Shown piece after piece: positions 1 through 64,000 of a DNA stretch of 64,000 nucleotides. This stretch comes from a virus. The notes under the pieces are model-generated. The model did not search any database and had not been told where the DNA came from. It was given only the letters and a program-made list of their open reading frames with translations. The translations under genes and the position numbers were made by a program. The stretch is from positions 39,146 through 103,145 of IMG/VR virus record IMGVR_UViG_3300028840_004913; one strand, written 5' to 3'. Numbering within the stretch: the stretch's first letter is position 1; the number at the start of each line of letters is the position of its first letter.

Positions 1-95
1 TTTACCCGCCCTTGGCACTCGGGAGTCCTCTGTAAACCGCAACGGCTGCAACCAATTACGACTCCAGCAGGAAGCGACCTATGCCCTCTATGGTT
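1..95 (-). ncRNA. 5' half of a putative kissing-loop ncRNA (homologue of 59252-59413), cut by the window edge
   Basis: Shared blocks AACCWTAGAGGGCAY, GGTTGCAG and CGAGTGYCAAGRGCGGGKAAA; stems GGCAT/GTGCC and GGAGTC/GACTCC. Confidence 0.6.
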
Positions 96-106
96 AATGT
101 TTAAAT

Positions 107-234
107 TGGTAGCCTGGCAAGGAGTTGAACCTTGCACGCCTATCCTGGAGCGACCAGGGTCTTTGCACGCGACTACTAACATACTGAGCCAGCCGACAAC
201 CGGTATGGACTGACTGTTCTGCTTTGTCCAGGCC
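107..234 (-). ncRNA. tRNA-like ncRNA (acceptor stem, T arm and CCA; no canonical D or anticodon arm)
   Basis: GGCCTGG/CCAGGCT-A-CCA acceptor; CAAGG-TTCAACT-CCTTG T arm; about 93 nt of non-canonical interior. Confidence 0.65.
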
Positions 235-244
235 ATAAAGTATT

Positions 245-329
245 TGGTAGCGCGGGTTGGAGTTGAACCAACACAGGCCTAAGCCCACAGATTTACAGTC
301 TGCTACCCTCGCCTATGGGTTGCCACGCT
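245..329 (-). tRNA. tRNA-Tyr(GUA)
   Basis: GCAGA-CTGTAAA-TCTGT anticodon arm, variable arm, T arm, encoded CCA. Confidence 0.9.
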
Positions 330-546
330 ATTGATCTTCGTCCGCTGCCATCCACAGCGTTACAAAATCATCCGTTTGCATTGGAGACGGCTGCGGTATC
401 TCATGAGCCGGATAAACTGTTTTGCTTTCCCATATCGAAAAAAGGCACCCGCATTTAAAGCATCGATAATACTCACCATTAAGATGCTCCCACGGATAGG
501 GATGTTTGCATTTAGAAAGTTTCCCGGCGAACACCTCTTTAATCAT
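328..546 (-). CDS. Small Zn-ribbon-like hypothetical protein
   Basis: CKHPYPW...RCFKC conserved in homologue 59665-59889; start chosen from the homology. Confidence 0.7.
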   Translation of the reverse strand: MIKEVFAGKLSKCKHPYPWEHLNGEYYRCFKCGCLFSIWESKTVYPAHEIPQPSPMQTDDFVTLWMAADEDQ

Positions 547-856
547 CAGCTTTATACGGCCATGGTATTTCTGCATGATCATACCATACGCTGATTGTGA
601 GCTTCTCCTCCGGATCCCGTTCTGGCCTATCATCCTCTTCGCAAAGCCGCTTGTGGAAAACATAATACGCGAGCGTCAGGGGATTCGTATGGAAAAGGCG
701 GCCGGCAAGGTGTTCGTCGACTACCTTCTCAGAAGGAAATGCAATGCTAAGCAGGTGTTTTGACACGAAAAAAATACATTTTCCCGTTTCCTTCTTGATA
801 AAAAGGACACGGTCGCCATCGTCTAAGTATCTGTATTCTCCTGGTACTATTCCCAT
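539..856 (-). CDS. Hypothetical protein
   Basis: Strongly conserved homologue at 59882-60193. Confidence 0.8.
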   Translation of the reverse strand: MGIVPGEYRYLDDGDRVLFIKKETGKCIFFVSKHLLSIAFPSEKVVDEHLAGRLFHTNPLTLAYYVFHKRLCEEDDRPERDPEEKLTISVWYDHAEIPWPYKADD

Positions 857-1147
857 TTAAGCGTCCTCCCAAAAGACCGATATTTTATATTGTTTACCGC
901 ACCGTGGGCACCGTGTATTCACGATCTTATCTACCGAAAAAACGGATACCTCATAAATAGACTCGACATCCACCCGAACACCACAACACGGACCCTGGAA
1001 CAGCCTGAGGATCTTCGTATCGTTAATATGCTGGTCCTTGACTGTTCGCCGGCTGTCGCATTTGCCGGTCATTAGACAATCGTAAGCCTTCATTTCTGTG
1101 TTGATTCCCATTGCATCTAATGGGCGATCCACCAAATATCTATTCAT
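857..1147 (-). CDS. Cys-rich (Zn-finger-like) hypothetical protein
   Basis: GPCC...RCPRCG; homologue at 60193-60492; G-rich RBS before MNRYL. Confidence 0.75.
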   Translation of the reverse strand: MNRYLVDRPLDAMGINTEMKAYDCLMTGKCDSRRTVKDQHINDTKILRLFQGPCCGVRVDVESIYEVSVFSVDKIVNTRCPRCGKQYKISVFWEDA

Positions 1148-1167
1148 TGCTCCCCCTTTCAAATGAA

Positions 1168-1257
1168 CTGGTAGCCCAGGGGATCTTAACCACCATGGCC
1201 GGCCAAAGCCATGGGAGCCTCACCCCCGGGTATTACCAGACCTGCTGCAGTCCAGGT
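1168..1257 (-). ncRNA. Putative structured ncRNA element B (copy 1)
   Basis: ACCTG/CAGGT hairpin, then long stem CTGGTA/TACCAG, CCCGGGGG/CCCCTGGG, CCATGGC/GCCATGG; covaries with 60515-60603. Confidence 0.7.
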
Positions 1258-1260
1258 TTT

Positions 1261-1307
1261 ACCGTTTTGCACTCTAACATTCGTAATGTTATTGTGCAAA
1301 AAATGGT
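1261..1307. repeat. Inverted repeat (hairpin) at the site where copy 2 carries rtcB
   Basis: TTTTGCAC..TAACATT / AATGTTA..GTGCAAAA. Confidence 0.75.
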
Positions 1308-1308
1308 T

Positions 1309-1384
1309 GGGTAGCCAGGTCTGGATCCCTGGCCGCCCCGGGCTGCATTCTCCGATACGGAAGAGCGCAGCCTCTGTCCAGATG
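1309..1384 (-). ncRNA. Putative structured ncRNA element A (copy 1)
   Basis: TCTGGA/TCCAGA, GGCTGC/GCAGCC, GGGCGGCCAGG/CCTGGCTACCC; conserved with 61799-61877. Confidence 0.65.
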
Positions 1385-1804
1385 TTATGAGCCATCGAGA
1401 ACAGGCTCAAATCCGATAACCACCGCGCTGCTGGCGCCCGATACGTCAGATCCATAGATACCGCGCAGGACGTCCATCAGGACGATAGGATTGCGACATA
1501 TGCCGTCATGCAACTTTGTGAACACAAACGGCGGGATATCTGCCAGGCTGCAGGTCATGACATGCGTTATGACAGCGTTGCCGATCTGCTGTTCGTCCGA
1601 ATCTTGCATCGGCAGGACCTTGCCTACTAACATCGGTTTGGCCCATTTATCACCAATGCGGACGGTGAAATTGAGCCCCTTCTTAAACTCGAGGCGCTTA
1701 AAATCCAATGTTTTCGGAAGGATAGCGTCTCCTAAAGGCGCCTGGTATCCTTTCGGATTGCAGCCTTCATCCCCGAACTCATCCATTAAAGGATCTGTGC
1801 TCAT
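1385..1804 (-). CDS. ASCH/PUA-like domain protein
   Basis: Pattern TVR-x-G..G..A-x-IT-x-V...LAD...H...L..IY...VVIGF resembles ASCH; homologue at 61878-62288. Confidence 0.6.
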   Translation of the reverse strand: MSTDPLMDEFGDEGCNPKGYQAPLGDAILPKTLDFKRLEFKKGLNFTVRIGDKWAKPMLVGKVLPMQDSDEQQIGNAVITHVMTCSLADIPPFVFTKLHDGICRNPIVLMDVLRGIYGSDVSGASSAVVIGFEPVLDGS

Positions 1805-1819
1805 GATGATAACCCCCTG

Positions 1820-2068
1820 TTATAAAAGGTTTTTGATGTCTTGCACGACCTGCTCGACCAGCACAGGAATGACGACATTCGCCATATCCTCAAGCTCGCT
1901 TTCTTCTATCAAGATATCGCCTGTGTAAGAAACAAACCCATTTGATACCTCGACCTTCAACATAAACGTGCCTGGTAGCTTGTGGCCGGCCAGGGTAGCC
2001 CGTGCAAATATTCCCTCTCTATTCATTAATGACACCATTATATCACGATTAATGTCAGAATGGTGCAC
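1820..2068 (-). CDS. Hypothetical protein
   Basis: Homologue at 62301-62519; true start probably near 2038. Confidence 0.7.
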   Translation of the reverse strand: MHHSDINRDIMVSLMNREGIFARATLAGHKLPGTFMLKVEVSNGFVSYTGDILIEESELEDMANVVIPVLVEQVVQDIKNLL

Positions 2069-2168
2069 CCTCTACTTCGATACACCACCATAAATATAAC
2101 AGCCCGAGCGCGGCGGCTGCCAGGGCAATCCAAATGTCGGCATCTTTGTCAGGATCATATTTTTTCAA
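2055..2168 (-). CDS. 37-aa single-pass membrane microprotein (not in the ORF track)
   Basis: GGAGG RBS, TTG start, MKKYDPDKDADIWIALAAAALGLLYLWWCIEVEGAPF; same-length homologue at 62579-62692. Confidence 0.7.
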   Translation of the reverse strand: MKKYDPDKDADIWIALAAAALGLLYLWWCIEVEGAPF

Positions 2169-2281
2169 TTTCGTCAATCCTCCTGTTTAATTTAACGAGT
2201 ACATCCAACACCCCTCTAAGCACAAAATAAATAGATCCGACAATCACGCAGAGCCCGAGAATCATAACGAAAAGAACGTTC

Positions 2282-2545
2282 TCAATCACGGAGCCCCCTT
2301 TGCTGCATTGCTGTATTACGGTCCTGGCTCGTTCTGTACGCTTCCATAGCCTGGTCGTATCCTTCCCAACCGTCGACTCCGAAGGTCATAAGGATCAATA
2401 AGAATTTGACATCTGCCTTGAGTGCATCATATTCCTGTTTTGTGATTGTAACGCTCTCATCTGTATCCACATAAACAGAAAGACCTGAATCGGTGCGGTG
2501 GCGTTTTATCGACTCATCCTTTGATTCAATATTCGACTCATCCAT
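2282..2545 (-). CDS. Hypothetical protein
   Basis: C-terminal VTITKxEYxALKxDVKFLL..GVDxWEGY shared with 62854-63117. Confidence 0.7.
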   Translation of the reverse strand: MDESNIESKDESIKRHRTDSGLSVYVDTDESVTITKQEYDALKADVKFLLILMTFGVDGWEGYDQAMEAYRTSQDRNTAMQQRGLRD

Positions 2546-3096
2546 TATCCGACCTCATGGGGAAGCCTGCCCCTGTTTTGCCCATCGATTGATACCAGGA
2601 TCTGCGTGAGATTGTTTATAATCGTGTCGCCTACCGGATCCTTCTTGAACCCCATAATAGTCTCAAGCCTATCGAGTGCGGCACCCTTCGAGTGGAATTT
2701 GAGTGTCCGCTTTGTCACGCCGGCGACGGACGACTCCCTGATCTCAGATATGGCCCGGGCAACATCGTCAGGCAGATCTTGTATCGGCTTTATATTTCCG
2801 TTGTTATCATAAAGATCCTTCGGATTGAGGAATGCAATACAAGCCTCTTCCGATAAGATCCGGTCGAGATCGACATAAAGATTCTGCTCTGCGACGTCCT
2901 GGGCCTTTGTCTCTAACTCGCTAAGCCTCTGTATTACAACAGGATCCTTAAGCCATCGTGAGGCCTGAGCCCAGGCGCTTTCCTTCTTGCAATTCGGAAA
3001 GACCTGCATATAGGCTTTGCCTGCAGAGCTCGGGTCCCTGAAATAATACTCTGCGAATTTATTTCTATTCGCTATGGCTACTGAGGATTTGCTCAT
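2545..3096 (-). CDS. terS: Terminase small subunit
   Basis: N-terminal FAEYY..AGKAY..AWAQASRWLKDPVV; IAF.....LYD.NG.IKPI.DLPDD..RAI; K..ALD.L. Confidence 0.8.
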   Translation of the reverse strand: MSKSSVAIANRNKFAEYYFRDPSSAGKAYMQVFPNCKKESAWAQASRWLKDPVVIQRLSELETKAQDVAEQNLYVDLDRILSEEACIAFLNPKDLYDNNGNIKPIQDLPDDVARAISEIRESSVAGVTKRTLKFHSKGAALDRLETIMGFKKDPVGDTIINNLTQILVSIDGQNRGRLPHEVG

Positions 3097-3108
3097 AATA
3101 TCAGACGG

Positions 3109-3363
3109 TTACCAATTGATATCGAGTTGAATACTAAACCCAAGGAAGCCTATCCAAAGGTTTATATGGTTATAACCATTCTGCCAGGCAAACTCAAAAG
3201 AGGCGCCGGCACCAAATCCAAGGGTCCTTGAGAGAAGGTCAGAAGTCATAAAGGTGAACGCAAGGCCAACCTCAGGGCATCCTGCTGGATCGCTCAGGTA
3301 ATTCCAAAGTCTGGTTGCGCTTTCCTTAACACATTTGGTTATTTTCTCAAAACCTATAAACAT
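3109..3363 (-). CDS. Hypothetical protein
   Basis: AGGAGG RBS; C-terminus homologous to the partial ORF at 63968-64000. Confidence 0.65.
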   Translation of the reverse strand: MFIGFEKITKCVKESATRLWNYLSDPAGCPEVGLAFTFMTSDLLSRTLGFGAGASFEFAWQNGYNHINLWIGFLGFSIQLDINW

Positions 3364-3376
3364 GATGCTCCTCCTT

Positions 3377-3733
3377 TTATTCTGGCATTTCGCCGCAAAC
3401 GCGACATGGCTTCGGGACACGATATCCCTTTGCCAGTTTTTCAACCCAATTACGGCCTACATCGGTGGCAACATAGAAATAGGTAAGCCTTCCACGTTCA
3501 TGCGAAAAATTATATTCCCTTATTGCCTCGAGGACATAATGCGTTGTCGGTGTATTAACAACAATCTCTGTCGCCATCTGGAGCCCACCATCTGGCATGA
3601 CAGGTATCTTTGGGTAAACCCTATCGGCCCTCTCATAAGACTTCGGAAGGAATGACCCTTCCATCTTTACATCAAGCCGCTCTCCGTCGGCATGACCCCC
3701 TATATGCAGGATGTTCGCAAATTCTTCTTTCAT
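3377..3733 (-). CDS. Hypothetical protein
   Basis: Fits the tightly packed minus-strand operon; C-terminal CxxC. Confidence 0.55.
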   Translation of the reverse strand: MKEEFANILHIGGHADGERLDVKMEGSFLPKSYERADRVYPKIPVMPDGGLQMATEIVVNTPTTHYVLEAIREYNFSHERGRLTYFYVATDVGRNWVEKLAKGYRVPKPCRVCGEMPE

Positions 3734-3734
3734 G

Positions 3735-4073
3735 TCATTCTCCAGCGCATTTATCGCATTTTGTTTTAAGCCAGGGTCCTTCCCGAAGCTTCCCGGGATT
3801 CCCGCAGAATTCACATGTTGACCTGGACAACTCTGAAGCCGCTTCTATGGACTTCCGGATATCCTTTGTCGCAATATTTATATAGAAATCAAGGGCTCCA
3901 AACTTTTCCTTTACCTGTGTAGCCTGGCAACGGCCGGTGGGGTCCTTCTCTATGATATCGGAGCACAGCATATCGATAATATCATACCAGCCATCCCCAC
4001 ATTCGAAGTAAATACCCCTCGGAAATATGCTCGGATATCTGTCAACCAACTGATTTGTAAGGGTTTCATTCAT
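3735..4073 (-). CDS. Conserved phage hypothetical protein
   Basis: ECGDGW...QVKEKFG.L.FY...CE.CG.PG motif, a recurrent phage family. Confidence 0.75.
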   Translation of the reverse strand: MNETLTNQLVDRYPSIFPRGIYFECGDGWYDIIDMLCSDIIEKDPTGRCQATQVKEKFGALDFYINIATKDIRKSIEAASELSRSTCEFCGNPGKLREGPWLKTKCDKCAGE

Positions 4074-4084
4074 GTTTGGCCCTC

Positions 4085-4627
4085 TTATCTGGATCCTTTG
4101 GAAGCAATTGGCACCCATGAAATACATATCCACCCACAAGGGATAAAGTATTCCTTCCCCTCGAGTGTTTTTATCCTATGGGCGTCATTCGACCCGACCC
4201 AATCGAAGCCTGGGTCATGAATGACGAGAAGCTGTGACGGATAAACAACCGTGACAGTCGACTCATCCGGATATGTATATATGCGCCATGCCTGGTCGCT
4301 GACATCAAGCCATTCCTCTGACCTAAAGAAGGGTGCATCGGCCGGACAATTAAGGGCCTCTTCCAATTCGTCCATATCCTTGAACCCACCGATACGGTGC
4401 CACCCGTCGTCGTCCTCGAATTCGTGAGGTAGGTCGTGCGTCGACATATCGACCATGATAGGCGGCTTTACGATCTGACCGCACGCATGACATTGCCAAA
4501 CGAGCTCCCTGCTCGGTAGCTTCCCGGTGCCAACCTTCTCCTGGCATTGCGGACAAAGCACATATATGCCGGTATCATCCCTCAAAATGCAATCTGCCCT
4601 ATCTACTATCACGTTTTTATCTTTCAT
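4085..4627 (-). CDS. Zn-ribbon-containing hypothetical protein
   Basis: CPQC...CHAC; G-rich RBS. Confidence 0.6.
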   Translation of the reverse strand: MKDKNVIVDRADCILRDDTGIYVLCPQCQEKVGTGKLPSRELVWQCHACGQIVKPPIMVDMSTHDLPHEFEDDDGWHRIGGFKDMDELEEALNCPADAPFFRSEEWLDVSDQAWRIYTYPDESTVTVVYPSQLLVIHDPGFDWVGSNDAHRIKTLEGKEYFIPCGWICISWVPIASKGSR

Positions 4628-58659: not shown

Positions 58660-58676
58660 GTAATTACTATAAATGT

Positions 58677-58759
58677 TGGCAGAGGGTGGATGAATCGAAC
58701 ACCTACGTTTAACCGCACCACGGGGTTCAAGCCCGATTTGTCCCTTGACGGCACCCTCC
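58677..58759 (-). tRNA. tRNA-Ser(UGA)
   Basis: CGGG-CTTGAAC-CCCG; variable arm; G73; atypical D arm. Confidence 0.82.
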
Positions 58760-58760
58760 T

Positions 58761-59004: not shown

Positions 59005-59009
59005 AATTG

Positions 59010-59080
59010 TGGAGCCCGATGTAGGAATCAAACCCACCTTCCATGGGTACAAACCATGTTAGATCTCAGACCAATCGGGC
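59010..59080 (-). tRNA. tRNA-Thr(UGU), reduced D arm
   Basis: GCCCGAT/ATCGGGC; CATGG-TTTGTAC-CCATG; 71 nt. Confidence 0.82.
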
Positions 59081-59081
59081 C

Positions 59082-59160: not shown

Positions 59161-59246
59161 TGGTTGGCAGGGAGGGATTTGAACCCCCGAACTCCGGAGA
59201 GGGCTGATTTACAGTCAGCCTGCTTTAGCCTCTTGCATACCTACCA
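59161..59246 (-). tRNA. tRNA-Tyr(GUA)
   Basis: GCTGA-CTGTAAA-TCAGC; variable arm; A73. Confidence 0.93.
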
Positions 59247-59251
59247 ACAAA

Positions 59252-59413
59252 TGGTGCGAGCAGGTGGCCGGTTTCGCTGGCTATCATAAGGATTTGCAGA
59301 TCCTTCAAGCCTCCACGGTTTCCCCGCTCTTGACACTCGATTGATCTTATCACCTTCTGGATGGACTGCAACCCGATCCAGGGTGACTCGATCGCCCTGT
59401 GCCCTCTAAGGTT
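59252..59413 (-). ncRNA. Putative kissing-loop ncRNA ending in CCA, inside the tRNA array
   Basis: Two long arms with complementary apical loops TTGCAG and CTGCAA; 5' arm conserved at 1-95. Confidence 0.65.
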
Positions 59414-59434
59414 GCCGAATGGCATCCTAAAATG

Positions 59435-59510
59435 TGGTGGCCGATCCTGGGCTTGAACCAGGGACCGCTCGATTATCGGTCGAGTGCTCTCCCAACTGAG
59501 CTAATCGGCC
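59435..59510 (-). tRNA. tRNA-Ile(GAU), C33
   Basis: CTCGA-CCGATAA-TCGAG. Confidence 0.92.
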
Positions 59511-59664: not shown

Positions 59665-59889
59665 TCATTCATCCTCAAAAGGCCAGGCCGTTCCGGATAT
59701 CTGCGTAGGGATTATGGCCTGCTTCCTTCCTGCGTACTCTTCCTCCTCTTCCATTTTGGCCGGTCGCCATGGCTGATTTGAGAATATCGCCTTGCATTTA
59801 AAGCACCTATACCATTGTCCGTCAAGATGATCCCATGGATAAGGGTGCTTGCATTTAGGGATCTTGCCCCCTTTTATCTCCCTAAGCAT
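59665..59889 (-). CDS. Small Zn-ribbon-like hypothetical protein
   Basis: Homologue of 328-546. Confidence 0.7.
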   Translation of the reverse strand: MLREIKGGKIPKCKHPYPWDHLDGQWYRCFKCKAIFSNQPWRPAKMEEEEEYAGRKQAIIPTQISGTAWPFEDE

Positions 59890-60193
59890 CAACCTTGTAT
59901 GGCCACGGGATTTCCGCATGGTCATACCATATGCTTATTTTCAGCTTCTCTTCTGGATCTCGCGCCGGCCGATCATCTTCCTCACACAATCCCTTGTGCA
60001 GAACATAATAGGCCAGGGTTAAAGGGTTAGTATGGAAGTCCTGTTTCGCCAGGCTGTGGTCGACCATATGCTCCGACGCCAGGCTAAGCATCTGTTTTGT
60101 AACGAAAAAAACGCATTTGCCCGTCTCTTTCTTGATAAACAGGATCCGATCACCATCGTCTAAGTATCTGTAATCCTTAGGAACGAAGCCCAT
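59882..60193 (-). CDS. Hypothetical protein
   Basis: Homologue of 539-856. Confidence 0.8.
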   Translation of the reverse strand: MGFVPKDYRYLDDGDRILFIKKETGKCVFFVTKQMLSLASEHMVDHSLAKQDFHTNPLTLAYYVLHKGLCEEDDRPARDPEEKLKISIWYDHAEIPWPYKVDA

Positions 60194-60492
60194 TAGCTGT
60201 CCTCCCAAACGACCGATATATTGTACCGTTTACCGCACCGTGGGCACCGTGTATGCAGGATATTATCCGTCGCATTAACAGACACAATATCCACCCGAAC
60301 CTTGCAACATGGGCCCTGGAACACCCTCAGGATCTGAGTATCATTCCTGTGCTGGTCTTCAGCCGTGCGCTGATGATTACATTTGCCACGCATTAAACAG
60401 TCAAAGGCCGTCATCTCTGCCTCAATACCTCTGACGTCCAAAGGGCGATCACCTAAATATTTTATCGGCTTACCCTGTTCACATTTCTCCAT
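60193..60492 (-). CDS. Cys-rich hypothetical protein
   Basis: Homologue of 857-1147. Confidence 0.75.
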   Translation of the reverse strand: MEKCEQGKPIKYLGDRPLDVRGIEAEMTAFDCLMRGKCNHQRTAEDQHRNDTQILRVFQGPCCKVRVDIVSVNATDNILHTRCPRCGKRYNISVVWEDS

Positions 60493-60514
60493 ATGAACCC
60501 CCTCTCAAATGAAA

Positions 60515-60603
60515 CTGGTAGCCCGAGAGCTCAGCGACCACAGCCGGCCAAAGCTGTGGACCACCTTACCCTCGGGTGTTACCAGACCTGCTGCAGTTCA
60601 GGT
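60515..60603 (-). ncRNA. Putative structured ncRNA element B (copy 2)
   Basis: CCACAGC/GCTGTGG vs CCATGGC/GCCATGG in copy 1; invariant TTTGGCCG loop. Confidence 0.7.
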
Positions 60604-60604
60604 T

Positions 60605-61774
60605 TTATCCTTTAACGACCAGTATCGGCCGAAAATTATCAATAATTCTAATCAGTTTAGACGAACCGCTCAATACATATCCTATGTCCTTATATGCATA
60701 GGCCGATTCATCGAGCAGCTTCTCGACTGGCTGAGAAACCATTATACCATCCATTGACTTTGAATGGTCTGCCATGTCGATTGTTTTTTTGGCCCTGGTG
60801 CGCGACATGGTACGGCCGCATCCGTGAGGCGCTGACTCGAGACACTCTTTATTGCCAAGCCCCTCTGTGATCCAAACACCATCCCGCATATTCGCTGGTA
60901 TGATGCCTATATCCCCCTTTGAAGCCGGCGTAGCGCCTTTACGATGGATAACCCCATCATCGGTAACCGTCGCATGGTTATGGTTCTCATTCACCATATC
61001 CATCATTAGCCTGCGGACCTGGCCAGACTGGAGCCCTAAGGCCTTGAGGGCTTTCTTCATCATGAGCTCTCGGTTGCGAAGGGCAAAGCTGAGAGCCCAA
61101 TTCATATCTGCCAGGTATTGCTGGCCGAGCTCAGACTCAAGAGGTATCGGCCCACCGGACATACGCATATAGAAGTCACCGATATTATATCCAGACTTCC
61201 GTGATCCTGAATGAATGGTAACGCCAACCTCTTCTGTGCGCTGGCTGATACCGTACTCGAGGAAATGATTGCCACCACCGAGAGTACCGACCTGCCAGGC
61301 TGCCTTCATATTGACCGCATCGGCTAAGGCTTTGTATTTACTGGCATTCCTAAACCGCTCGAATCCATTGGATTTAGTCTTTCTTGAGTCGAAACCCACC
61401 GGAATCATTGATAATACTCTCTTCTTGATATCCGTCCTGGTGGTCCCGAGCTCGCCATAGGTTATGCCAGTATTCACATGGCACATACCGCATCCAATGT
61501 CATAACCCACAGCCCCTGGCCAAATATAACCGTCCAATAATGCTACAGATCCTATCGGTAGATCATAGCCGGCATGCACGTCTCGCATGATAGCCAGGCG
61601 CTTAACAATGTACCGATCTGCAGCATATCTGCCTGGATCCTGCCGTGGATACATAAGGGCATTCACGATCTGATCCTTCGCAGGGTCCTCTATATCTTCC
61701 CATGGCAGCGTTAATTCCAGGCGGCCACCTGCAAAGTCGATAGCATCTTCCGTGGTAATCAGTTCAATAGCCAC
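60605..61774 (-). CDS. rtcB: RNA 2',3'-cyclic-phosphate/5'-OH ligase RtcB
   Basis: DVHAG..PIG, VGYDIGCGM, GTLGGGNHFLE, HSGSR, HNH, HRKGA, SAPHGCGR, DES..AYK; GTG start at 61774 after GGGGGAGG. Confidence 0.97.
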   Translation of the reverse strand: MAIELITTEDAIDFAGGRLELTLPWEDIEDPAKDQIVNALMYPRQDPGRYAADRYIVKRLAIMRDVHAGYDLPIGSVALLDGYIWPGAVGYDIGCGMCHVNTGITYGELGTTRTDIKKRVLSMIPVGFDSRKTKSNGFERFRNASKYKALADAVNMKAAWQVGTLGGGNHFLEYGISQRTEEVGVTIHSGSRKSGYNIGDFYMRMSGGPIPLESELGQQYLADMNWALSFALRNRELMMKKALKALGLQSGQVRRLMMDMVNENHNHATVTDDGVIHRKGATPASKGDIGIIPANMRDGVWITEGLGNKECLESAPHGCGRTMSRTRAKKTIDMADHSKSMDGIMVSQPVEKLLDESAYAYKDIGYVLSGSSKLIRIIDNFRPILVVKG

Positions 61775-61798
61775 GCCTCCCCCTCTCGTTAAATGATT

Positions 61799-61877
61799 GG
61801 GTAGCCAGGTCTGGATCCCTGACCGCCCCAGGCTGCCCCCGTCCCTGTGCGACACGGGGTACAACCTTGTCCAGATG
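61799..61877 (-). ncRNA. Putative structured ncRNA element A (copy 2)
   Basis: TCTGGA/TCCAGA, AGGTTGT/GCAGCCT, CCCCGT/ACGGGG, GGGCGGTCAGG/CCTGGCTACCC. Confidence 0.65.
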
Positions 61878-62288
61878 TTATGAGCCGTCCAATACAGGCT
61901 CGAAGCCTATGACGACCGCGACGCTGGCACCGGAAACTTCCTGGCCATAGATCCCGCGCAGGACGTCCATCAGGACGATCGGATTAGCGCAGATCCCGTC
62001 ATGATGCTTTGTAAAGATGAACTTCGGGATATCGGCCAGGCTGCACACCATGACATGGGTAATGACCGCATTCCCGATTTGCTGTTCGTCGTCGTCATTC
62101 ATCGGCAGGACCTTGCCCAATAGCCCAGGCTTTGCCCATCTGTCACCAATACGGACGGTAAAATTGAGCCCCTTCTTGAACTCGAGCCGTTTAAAATCTA
62201 ATGATTTCGGCAGGATAGCATCACCCAAAGGTGCCTGCGCTGCCTCACGATCGTCTACAAACTGGTCCTGAGCATTCTCTACACTCAT
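61878..62288 (-). CDS. ASCH/PUA-like domain protein
   Basis: Homologue of 1385-1804. Confidence 0.6.
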   Translation of the reverse strand: MSVENAQDQFVDDREAAQAPLGDAILPKSLDFKRLEFKKGLNFTVRIGDRWAKPGLLGKVLPMNDDDEQQIGNAVITHVMVCSLADIPKFIFTKHHDGICANPIVLMDVLRGIYGQEVSGASVAVVIGFEPVLDGS

Positions 62289-62300
62289 GATAACCCCCTG

Positions 62301-62519
62301 TTATATAATGTTTTTAATGTCTTGCACGACCTGTTCGACCAGGACCGGAATGACCACATTGGCCATATCCTCGAGCTCTGATTCATCTATCAGAATGTCA
62401 CCAGTATGAGAGACAAACCCATTTGATACCTCGATCTTCAAGACAAAGGTGCCTGGCAGACTATTGCCGGCCAGGGTAGCTCGTGCAAAAATTCCTTCCC
62501 TCTTCATTTCGACCACCAT
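62301..62519 (-). CDS. Hypothetical protein
   Basis: Homologue of 1820-2068. Confidence 0.7.
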   Translation of the reverse strand: MVVEMKREGIFARATLAGNSLPGTFVLKIEVSNGFVSHTGDILIDESELEDMANVVIPVLVEQVVQDIKNII

Positions 62520-62578
62520 AATGACACAGGAATATTCATTCCCTCTTAATTTCGACCACTATAATAACACAGATCTGC

Positions 62579-62692
62579 TTAGAATGGGGCACCCACCCGC
62601 TCGATACACCACCACAAATAAAGCAGCCCGAACCCTATGGCTGCGAGGGCAATAAAAACCTCAGCATCTTTTTCCGGATCATTTTTCTTCAA
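62579..62692 (-). CDS. 37-aa membrane microprotein (not in the ORF track)
   Basis: TTG start; MKKNDPEKDAEVFIALAAIGFGLLYLWWCIERVGAPF; homologue of 2055-2168. Confidence 0.7.
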   Translation of the reverse strand: MKKNDPEKDAEVFIALAAIGFGLLYLWWCIERVGAPF

Positions 62693-62864
62693 GGCGTCTC
62701 ACCCTCGCGTCCAGGTTAAGCAGGATCTTTATTATCCCGCTGAGCACACCGCATGCGAATAATGCGGCAAAGCTGGCCACAGCTAAAAGGCCAAGCACAA
62801 GTATATTCTCAATGATCTCGGTGTTGGCTGGATCCATAAACCAGGTGACCAGGCTATTCACCAC
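62679..62864 (-). CDS. Small membrane protein
   Basis: Central TM segment; overlaps its neighbours. Confidence 0.6.
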   Translation of the reverse strand: MVNSLVTWFMDPANTEIIENILVLGLLAVASFAALFACGVLSGIIKILLNLDARVRRLEEK

Positions 62865-63117
62865 GCATCTCCCTGGCTATCTCATATCCTTCCCATTCAT
62901 CGACGCCGGCAGCCATGAGGCACAATAGGAACTTCACGTCCTTTTTGAGAGCGGCGTACTCTTCCTTTGTTATCGTCACCATCTCGCTATCGTCGATCAG
63001 ATCTGCAGGATGATCCTTTGGTTCATCTATCTTTAAGCACCCGCCTGGCCCGATCTCGCCATGAACGTATGCAGACCCATTAAAAACCAGGTCGCTACCG
63101 CATATAGAGCATTTCAT
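62854..63117 (-). CDS. Hypothetical protein with an N-terminal Zn-binding motif
   Basis: C-terminal half homologous to 2282-2545; different N-terminus. Confidence 0.7.
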   Translation of the reverse strand: MKCSICGSDLVFNGSAYVHGEIGPGGCLKIDEPKDHPADLIDDSEMVTITKEEYAALKKDVKFLLCLMAAGVDEWEGYEIAREMRGE

Positions 63118-63128
63118 CCTAACCCCCT

Positions 63129-63398
63129 CTAATTATAGGATATACACCATTCGCTGGCGATCTCGTCCATAACCCAACATAGATCATCGTCGCTTATATC
63201 GGGATCCTCAAAGTAGACAGCCTCTTGCACGGCCTGTGATTCAGCCTGGCCACGGCCCTGCTCTTCATAGGCCTCATGGATATCATCGAATTCGTATTCC
63301 CAATCTGAGTCGAGATAGTCGCCCTTTAGATCGTCGATAGTCTCCATGACCTCTGATTCTCTGTCTTTAACCCTCTGCAATACTTCGCTTTTATTCAT
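63129..63398 (-). CDS. Acidic hypothetical protein (absent from copy 1)
   Basis: ORF directly after terS. Confidence 0.65.
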   Translation of the reverse strand: MNKSEVLQRVKDRESEVMETIDDLKGDYLDSDWEYEFDDIHEAYEEQGRGQAESQAVQEAVYFEDPDISDDDLCWVMDEIASEWCISYN

Positions 63399-63399
63399 T

Positions 63400-63954
63400 T
63401 TAACCTACCTCGTGGGGTAGCTTCCCCCTGTTTTGTCCATCGATTGATACCAGGATCTGAGTCAGATTATTAATGATGGTATCCCCAATCGGCTCTTTCT
63501 TAAAGCCCATGATCGTCTCGAGCCGGTCAAGCGCTGCACCTTTGGCGTGAAACTTTAGGGTGCGCCTGGTAATGCCTCCGGCCACAGACGTCTCTCGGAT
63601 CTCAGATATTGCCCTGGCAACCTCATCCGGCAGATCACGGATAGCTTTAAGATTGTTATTCTCGTCATACAGATCTTTCGGATTGAGGAACGCGATACAA
63701 GCCTCTTCTGATAGAATACGATCAAGGTCAATCTCCAGGTTAGCTTCGGCAACCTCCTGAGCCTTTTCCTCGAGCTCGCTAAGCCGCTGTATTACAACGG
63801 GATCTTTAAGCCAACGTGACCCCTGAGCCCAGGCAGACGTCTTCTTACAGCTTGGAAACACCTGCATATAAGCCTTGCCTGCAGAGCTCGGATCCTTAAA
63901 ATAGAACTCTGCAAACTTTCGACGACGCTCTATGGCAACAGAAGATTTACTCAT
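63400..63954 (-). CDS. terS: Terminase small subunit (copy 2)
   Basis: Close homologue of 2545-3096. Confidence 0.8.
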   Translation of the reverse strand: MSKSSVAIERRRKFAEFYFKDPSSAGKAYMQVFPSCKKTSAWAQGSRWLKDPVVIQRLSELEEKAQEVAEANLEIDLDRILSEEACIAFLNPKDLYDENNNLKAIRDLPDEVARAISEIRETSVAGGITRRTLKFHAKGAALDRLETIMGFKKEPIGDTIINNLTQILVSIDGQNRGKLPHEVG

Positions 63955-64000
63955 AATATTAGACGCTTACCAGTTAAGAAACAAACTGACCGAAAAGCCC

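Follow-up and report, generated by a model that had tools for sequence, protein, structure and literature searches.

The stretch of DNA analysed here, 64,000 nucleotides of the IMG/VR virus record IMGVR_UViG_3300028840_004913 (hereafter the window, to whose numbering all positions refer unless stated otherwise), carries a tRNA array on the minus strand, and since an element of 162 nt lies in this array between the genes for tRNA-Ile and tRNA-Tyr (59413 to 59252, minus strand), the question arises what an RNA that is no tRNA would be doing in the place of one. Since the work on T4 it has been known that the tRNA clusters of phages also contain stable RNAs other than tRNAs, and the role of these RNAs is unexplained after fifty years. 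By comparison of two copies of the element and of their predicted folds, it is shown here to be a discrete and non-coding module that is maintained by selection in a tRNA slot and that consists of two equal arms with complementary and invariant tips.

A discrete module in a tRNA slot

The minimum free energy fold of copy 2, the copy between tRNA-Ile and tRNA-Tyr, consists of two irregular hairpins of 72 nt each (-58.3 kcal/mol, z = -2.4). These arms are the only helical parts of the fold, and the 5' and 3' ends of the element are unpaired. The helices that had been listed in an earlier note on this DNA are present in the fold, and the loop coordinates given there are exact. Both loops are predicted to be unpaired with P = 0.92, and arm 1 is more stable than its shuffled versions (z = -3.4), while at least three pairings compete in the middle of arm 2 (GUGG/CCAC, CCG/CGG and a cloverleaf). 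The length of 162 nt was set by conservation against copy 1 and does not fix the true ends of the RNA.

What copy 1 represents follows from the structure of the virus record, of which the window is the part G000:C1:39146-103145. In a self-comparison of this record (103,145 bp), C1:1-43,260 is colinear with C1:59,887-103,120 at 66-80% identity (window positions 1-4115 against 59794-63975); the record carries two TerL genes that lie 59.9 kb apart and share 86% protein identity; and the complete genomes of related phages have about 60 kb. Judged by these features, the record is made up of one full genome of about 59.9 kb to which about 72% of a second, about 75%-identical genome is joined head to tail, and it likely originated as a chimeric assembly, a concatemer or a tandem pair (a tandem prophage pair). 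The two copies of the RNA are therefore to be regarded as the equivalent loci of two related phages (n = 2), copy 1 belonging to unit A and copy 2 to unit B, and any 'duplicate' in the window should be read as a counterpart from the second genome unit.

The complete copy 1 spans G000:C1:39078-39240 and thus extends beyond the left edge of the window, where the earlier note had predicted a second arm with a CUGCAA-like loop. Such an arm was found and its loop is identical, CUGCAA, so that the complementary second loop, whose lack in copy 1 had been named beforehand as grounds for giving up the proposal, is present. The two arms of copy 1 have 72 and 73 nt (72/72 in copy 2). Conservation between the copies is strikingly uneven: the 5' segment and junction are 89% identical, loop 1 with its closing pairs 82%, junction S2 (CGAGUGYCAAGRGCGGG) 79% and arm 2 88%, whereas the interior of arm 1 has fallen to 23-30%, i.e. 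to the random level, at unchanged length. This agrees with the previous description of a homologue that retains its junctions and the UUGCAG loop while stems are rewritten. As the interior of arm 1 is at random identity, unconstrained positions have become saturated, from which it follows that the junctions, both loops and arm 2 are held by selection. The tRNAs that can be paired between the arrays have, by comparison, identities of 64-88%, with 84% for the tRNA-Ile and the tRNA-Pro pair. In the common structure calculated by RNAalifold, all 40 of 40 pairs are standard in both copies and in five pairs near the tip of arm 1 both partners are changed between the copies; in a control in which the 3' partners were slid by 1-3 columns, only 34-46% could pair.

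Twelve tRNA genes, all of them encoded by the minus strand, were identified across the window by ARAGORN and Rfam. The array of unit A runs from Tyr through a tRNA mimic of 128 nt, the RNA and a small open reading frame (ORF) to Ile, and that of unit B from Ile through the RNA to Tyr. Since the flanks of the RNA are unlike in the two arrays, the element represents a self-contained, discrete module. The spacer that follows it (UUUGU) resembles in style the spacers between the other tRNA genes, so the earlier placement between tRNA-Ile and tRNA-Tyr with a tRNA-like spacing holds, the element being flanked by spacers of the array type and occupying a tRNA slot in both units. The claim of a CCA end stands for copy 2 (GCACCA) and fails for copy 1 (GCAUCA), which means that an encoded CCA is not conserved. 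The features of the element and its neighbours are collected in Table 1.

Table 1. Parts of the element, its two tRNA neighbours and the portion of copy 1 that lies in the window.
Feature	Position	Strand	Basis or remark
Whole element, copy 2	59252..59413	minus	Conservation with copy 1, fold
5' single-stranded segment AACC(U/A)UAGAG, 10 nt, AACCUUAGAG in copy 2	59404..59413	minus	89% identity for tail plus junction
Arm 1, 72-nt irregular hairpin, closing helix GGCAC/GUGUC	59332..59403	minus	Fold; interior sequence not conserved, length equal in both copies
Loop 1, UUGCAG; holds the Cys codon UGC, also readable as U33-GCA-R37	59366..59371	minus	Invariant in both copies
AA linker joining the arms	59330..59331	minus	Fold and alignment
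Arm 2, 72-nt hairpin, 7-bp closing helix GAGCGGG/CCUGCUC	59258..59329	minus	88% identity between copies
Loop 2, CUGCAA, exact complement of loop 1	59294..59299	minus	Fold
3' tail GCACCA (copy 1: GCAUCA), then UUUGU spacer	59252..59257	minus	One mismatch from the repeated TGCACCATT box
tRNA-Ile(GAU), upstream neighbour, CCA end 21 nt before the element	59435..59510	minus	ARAGORN/Rfam
tRNA-Tyr(GUA), downstream neighbour, starts 5 nt past the element	59161..59246	minus	ARAGORN/Rfam
Copy 1, portion in the window: 5' junction, arm 1 and start of arm 2	1..95	minus	Remaining 67 nt left of the window, G000:C1:39078-39145

The element had been called undescribed, and Rfam 15 indeed returned no family at the gathering score or at E ≤ 10 for the window, for a 1.5-kb segment, for 192 nt alone or for copy 1. 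Searches for homologues gave the same picture. No homologue was found by blastn of the element against 50,697 cultured-phage records, nor by exact and degenerate patterns in viral contigs, where the 88 and 5 matched stretches are chance matches according to a covariance model (R1) that was applied to the stretches returned by the pattern scans. All 33 stretches from a scan of metagenome contigs were false by this model as well, and the 4 stretches from bacterial and archaeal genome contigs are alike in the search pattern only. Nor did the same model find any when it was run over 80 loci belonging to TerL relatives and 63 belonging to RtcB relatives, or over the full length of 5 related records; a match of 12.9 bits (L278) was rejected, as it lies inside a 591-aa ORF and is unstructured. 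Likewise, no convincing two-hairpin RNA with a kissing contact was seen in 16 inter-tRNA gaps of other phage arrays. The closest TerL in public protein data outside the record has 60% identity, and the TerL relatives in IMG/VR have at most 54% and come without tRNA arrays. The cultured relatives, whose TerL is about 44% identical, are phages of Klebsiella, Erwinia, Pseudomonas and Vibrio, so that the host probably belongs to the Pseudomonadota.

The arrays hold several further features. The tRNA mimic just upstream of copy 1 (107-234, minus strand, about 128 nt) is absent from the other genome unit; its T arm (CAAGG-UUCAACU-CCUUG) is perfect, it possesses an acceptor stem of 7 bp and it ends in ACCA, but about 100 nt of its interior are not tRNA-like, and its match to a mascRNA-like model is weak (14.5 bits). 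Between copy 1 and tRNA-Ile of unit A lies a cysteine-rich ORF of 58 codons (L002:1231-1407, minus strand; G000:C1:38808-38984) with a CxxC motif and four further Cys, for which there is no counterpart at the same place in unit B. In the 77-nt gap between tRNA-Asp and tRNA-Asn (59005-59081, minus strand), a tRNA-like sequence with a CAUGG/CCAUG stem, the loop UUUGUAC (anticodon UGU, Thr) and the end CUCCA was missed by ARAGORN and gave a weak Rfam match of 15.9 bits to tRNA-Sec. Similarly, the 101-nt gap between tRNA-Gln and tRNA-Ser (58660-58760, minus strand) holds a long tRNA-like RNA with the acceptor GGAGGGU/ACCCUCU followed by GCCA and with a UUCGAUU loop, for which Rfam gave only 22.8 bits to tRNA-Sec. 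Farther upstream, a small protein with a T7 gp5.9-like RecBCD-inhibitor domain (62854-63117, minus strand; PF25708, 58 bits) adjoins TerS (63400-63954).

The matching tips and the likeness of arm 2 to tRNA-Cys

As had been claimed, the loops UUGCAG and CUGCAA are exact complements that can form six Watson-Crick pairs, and the energy of the duplex is -6.1 kcal/mol. Two hairpin loops with a complementary run of at least six nucleotides occurred in only 2 of 1000 dinucleotide shuffles. Both tips read Y-U-GCA-R, which is the layout of a GCA anticodon loop. Hairpins with UGCA in the loop are not enriched genome-wide, as the 68 observed against 57 expected are inside the shuffle range. One hairpin with this palindrome in its loop, ACCUG-AACUGCAG-CAGGU, lies just past the rtcB stop (60584-60605, minus strand) and is also conserved in unit A (at about 1245).

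The resemblance to an anticodon arm is closest for arm 2. Its tip, GGAU-CUGCAAAUCC, differs from the GGAU-UGCAAAUCC of Escherichia coli cysT by one inserted C, and arm 2 and cysT share, in the same order, a 7-bp closing helix, a 'variable' stretch of 4-5 nt and CCGG...CCGG. In global alignments of arm 2 of copy 1 against 144 distinct tRNAs, cysT scored best, a score that none of 200 shuffles reached, and three of the four tRNA-Cys ranked among the top 7, while arm 1 showed no likeness to any tRNA of this set. In its permissive mode for metazoan mitochondria, ARAGORN assigns to arm 2 of either copy a cloverleaf of 74-75 nt with a 7-bp acceptor and the four-base 'anticodon' UGCA.

As a true tRNA, however, arm 2 has to be rejected, since ARAGORN returned nothing in its standard or -ps mode and the Rfam tRNA model (RF00005) had no match at E ≤ 10. 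The loop of arm 2 has 6 nt if closed or 8 nt if open and is not the 7-nt loop of an anticodon arm; there is no T-loop (no GUUCRANYC); and the tail, G-CA-CCA in copy 2 and G-CA-UCA in copy 1, offers no NCCA in register. Compared to tRNA-Cys as represented by E. coli cysT, the element thus has a nearly identical tip and lacks the T-loop, the in-register NCCA and also the U73 discriminator, which is the main identity element for CysRS. Owing to the loop of 8 (or closed 6) nt, the lack of a T-loop and the lack of a proper NCCA end, the RNA would be unable to decode. We conclude that the tip of arm 2 copies the anticodon arm of tRNA-Cys(GCA), and it is possible that the whole of arm 2 has descended from a tRNA.

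What the RNA could be

How could an RNA of this kind be of use to the phage? The interpretation that we prefer, and that we hold only tentatively, is that the element is a real small RNA of the tRNA operon, namely a non-decoding mimic of an anticodon arm that is clamped by a loop-loop contact. The RNA gene would occupy a tRNA slot in the tRNA operons of the two phages, and its arm 1 would act as a spacer rod that is free in sequence and kept in length, with the UUGCAG tip as its only conserved interior part. This tip would pair with CUGCAA of the same molecule, UGC meeting GCA in a contact of the codon-anticodon type, and would thereby clamp the arms side by side. The pairing is placed within one molecule because two equal arms and a rod of fixed length and free sequence suit a clamp. 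Host nucleases of tRNA processing would free the RNA from the polycistronic tRNA transcript, the RNA would build up as a stable species, and it could then engage, as a decoy or competitor, a host factor that recognizes anticodon arms, such as an anticodon nuclease or an enzyme that modifies anticodon loops. We infer the kissing contact, the processing together with the tRNAs, the accumulation and the function as a mimic as parts of one model. The neighbourhood, with its tRNA arrays and with RtcB in one unit, loosely fits a theme of tRNA supply and tRNA repair: an RtcB RNA ligase gene (60605-61864, minus strand; Pfam, 240 bits) is found 1.2 kb upstream of the unit B tRNA array. It occurs in unit B only, as the record contains a single RtcB match and the colinear place in unit A is devoid of it.

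A number of observations speak against the clamped mimic. The RNA is present also in the unit that has no rtcB, and hence is independent of this gene. The tRNA-Cys signal is not significant in copy 2, and in copy 1 it stems almost wholly from the anticodon arm, since masking of this arm abolishes the preference. The cloverleaf, at -12 to -14 kcal/mol, is 14-16 kcal/mol worse than the extended hairpin (-28 kcal/mol), and the permissive mode of ARAGORN makes 205 calls in the 103-kb record. The pair statistics are weak, as 15 of 500 shuffles do equally well and the same two rows served both to derive the structure and to evaluate it. In copy 1, arm 1 is no more stable than shuffles (z = +0.1) and loop 1 is fully open with P = 0.10, because its outer U and G can pair. 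Furthermore, the loops match in part by necessity, UGCA being palindromic and UUGCAA perfectly so, with the result that four of the six loop-loop pairs arise by themselves if both tips resemble a GCA anticodon loop. What the palindrome does not account for is that the G of loop 1 faces the C of loop 2, that neither loop varies between the copies and that the arms are equally long. Lastly, the number of copies is only two; they are related and come from a single record. Being built on these two copies, their sequence and their predicted fold, the case should be taken as a lead and not as a result.

The most serious rival is that the element is the decaying relic of one or two tRNA-Cys genes plus spacer, in which the loop match would be a by-product of two GCA loops. 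This would account for both tips having the layout of anticodon loops, for the tRNA-like linear sequence of arm 2 in copy 1, for an arm 1 in copy 1 that folds no better than shuffles and for the loss of the CCA end in the same copy; in addition, phage tRNA arrays turn over fast, and the two arrays found here differ in content and order. However, arm 2 (88%) and the junctions (79-89%) are better conserved than the coding background (66-80%) and than the pairs formed by tRNA-Ile and by tRNA-Pro (84%), and the random identity of the arm-1 interior implies that neutral sites are saturated and that the conserved parts are under selection. Neither would a relic be expected to keep its arm length to the nucleotide, or to depart from UUGCAA at two positions (the G of loop 1 and the C of loop 2) that compensate each other. 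We therefore regard decay as unlikely.

It could also be imagined that the RNA assembles with itself, the arms being stacked end to end and the tips pairing between molecules to give dimers, rings or filaments, as in the phi29 packaging RNA (pRNA) or the ROOL and GOLLD cages. Complementary 6-nt loops on one molecule would allow this, and a short AA linker with free 5' and 3' tails on the opposite side would permit coaxial stacking. Phage-associated RNAs encoded beside tRNAs do form homo-oligomers through kissing loops (PMC12286853), and RNAs of less than 200 nt are capable of forming homo-oligomers (bioRxiv 10.64898/2026.07.01.735769), which we both count in favour of this possibility. On the other hand, arms of equal length in both copies suit a clamp within the molecule, whereas a rod that pairs in trans has no need of them. 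No match to the pRNA, ROOL or GOLLD models was obtained for the element, which with about 160 nt also contrasts with a size of at least 500 nt for GOLLD and ROOL, and the packaging set of the phage is an ordinary one (TerS/TerL/portal). Self-assembly thus seems distinctly improbable to us.

One could speculate further that the element is a self-masked mimic of the tRNA-Cys anticodon arm, whose anticodon-like loop would be paired with a codon hairpin of its own and which a host enzyme that reads anticodons, e.g. a tRNA-cleaving defence nuclease, could bind and could not cut, and which would hence be an inhibitor of tRNA-targeting immunity made of RNA only, or alternatively, with tips that pair in trans, that it forms an assembly made of RNA only. 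We give this speculation a slim chance.

An even slighter one would be granted to a cis-acting element of the tRNA operon, i.e. a processing scaffold or a transcription signal that merely resembles a gene. The sequence CGCACCATT at 59250-59258 (minus strand) is one mismatch away from the 9-mer TGCACCATT, of which there are six exact copies in the window (at 2059, 10221, 14446, 21087, 57245 and 58257), and an AU-rich AUUU stands 3' of the upstream CCA end as well as 3' of the element's own end. However, copy 1 departs from the box at two positions, a -10-like element is missing at the stated spacing, where the tRNA-Tyr gene begins instead, scans for promoters and terminators gave no call inside the element, and a two-arm fold of 160 nt far exceeds what a cleavage site needs.

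The loose resemblance to the lysine riboswitch that the earlier note had drawn did not hold up, and a ligand-sensing RNA related to it is very improbable. UAGAGG 5' and GYCAAG 3' of arm 1 together with the loop-loop contact are reminiscent of the L-box, as in the Bacillus subtilis lysC leader, and a 6-bp loop-loop helix like that of L2-L3 could hold two roughly parallel arms in the manner of P2 and P3. In contrast to the riboswitch, which has five helices (P1-P5, with P1 closing) and resides in the 5' leader of a lysine-related gene with an expression platform, the element has two helices and is surrounded by tRNA genes; it has no P1, expression platform or terminator, and a search confined to 192 nt gave no match to RF00168 even at E ≤ 10. 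Finally, the idea of a small protein gene can practically be dismissed, as the only long ORF over copy 2 (59225-59425, minus strand; ATG start, 66 codons, 66 aa) runs into tRNA-Tyr, is put out of frame in copy 1 by an indel of 1 nt, encodes unrelated residues in its arm-1 part and shows no third-position bias among the arm-2 substitutions, all in line with the non-coding nature claimed before.

Comparison with known systems

Among the known RNAs with which the element can be compared, the phi29 pRNA (RF00044) comes from a phage as well, is about as long and has two loops that complement each other (PMC4201828). Through these loops, pRNA molecules are joined into a ring that sits on the portal of phi29-like phages, while the phage studied here is a classical TerS/TerL phage, and since the arms of the element are equal, a contact within one molecule is favoured over such a pairing in trans. 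In analogy only, Stem I of the T-box can be mentioned, given that loop 1 (U-UGC-A-G) offers a Cys codon and a purine to a loop that resembles a GCA anticodon loop; in the element, though, the contact would be made in cis, and there is no antiterminator, no distal platform and no match to the Rfam 15 models of the T-box or of self-cleaving ribozyme families.

Small RNAs that mimic tRNAs and are encoded near an RtcB ligase gene are also represented by the YrlA/Y RNAs. In this case the difference is that Ro60 is lacking here and that the RNA is present in the unit without rtcB, too. The element has no match to RF02553, the sole YrlA matches being weak and located on true tRNAs, and a Ro/Y-RNA system could be ruled out because the record contains no Ro60/TROVE gene (PF05731), with positive controls being detected in the same search.

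The closest known system is RNA C of T4 (rnaC, species 1 RNA). The genes for RNA C and RNA D lie at the end of the tRNA cluster of T4, on the same strand as the tRNA genes, and both products were confirmed as late RNAs by Northern blot (PMC9697503); their function is unknown (PMC3014915; PMC9697503). In T4 rnaC (L085:2909-3047, minus strand), the tips UUGACG (43-48) and CGUCAA (97-102) are perfect 6-nt complements that stand beside a canonical T arm, a complementarity of which no mention was found in PMC3014915 or PMC9697503. Like the element, RNA C therefore lies on the tRNA strand in a phage tRNA cluster, does not decode and has two complementary tips of 6 nt. It differs in that its 139 nt are closed at the ends by an acceptor-like stem and include the canonical T arm (GGUUCGAAUCC), whereas in the element the ends are free, a T-loop is missing and the two arms are long and equal. 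The two sequences are unrelated, with no similarity by the covariance model, and what they have in common is the design, that is, a non-decoding RNA with complementary tips in a tRNA slot.

It is this specific design of two mutually matching hairpin tips that connects the element to RNA C of T4, and in the element one of the tips in addition imitates an anticodon arm. If the design recurs, it would offer a concrete idea for such RNAs, namely tRNA mimicry in the conflict over the cleavage and repair of host tRNAs. At the same time, the element provides a small and tractable RNA for the structural study of loop-loop clamps.

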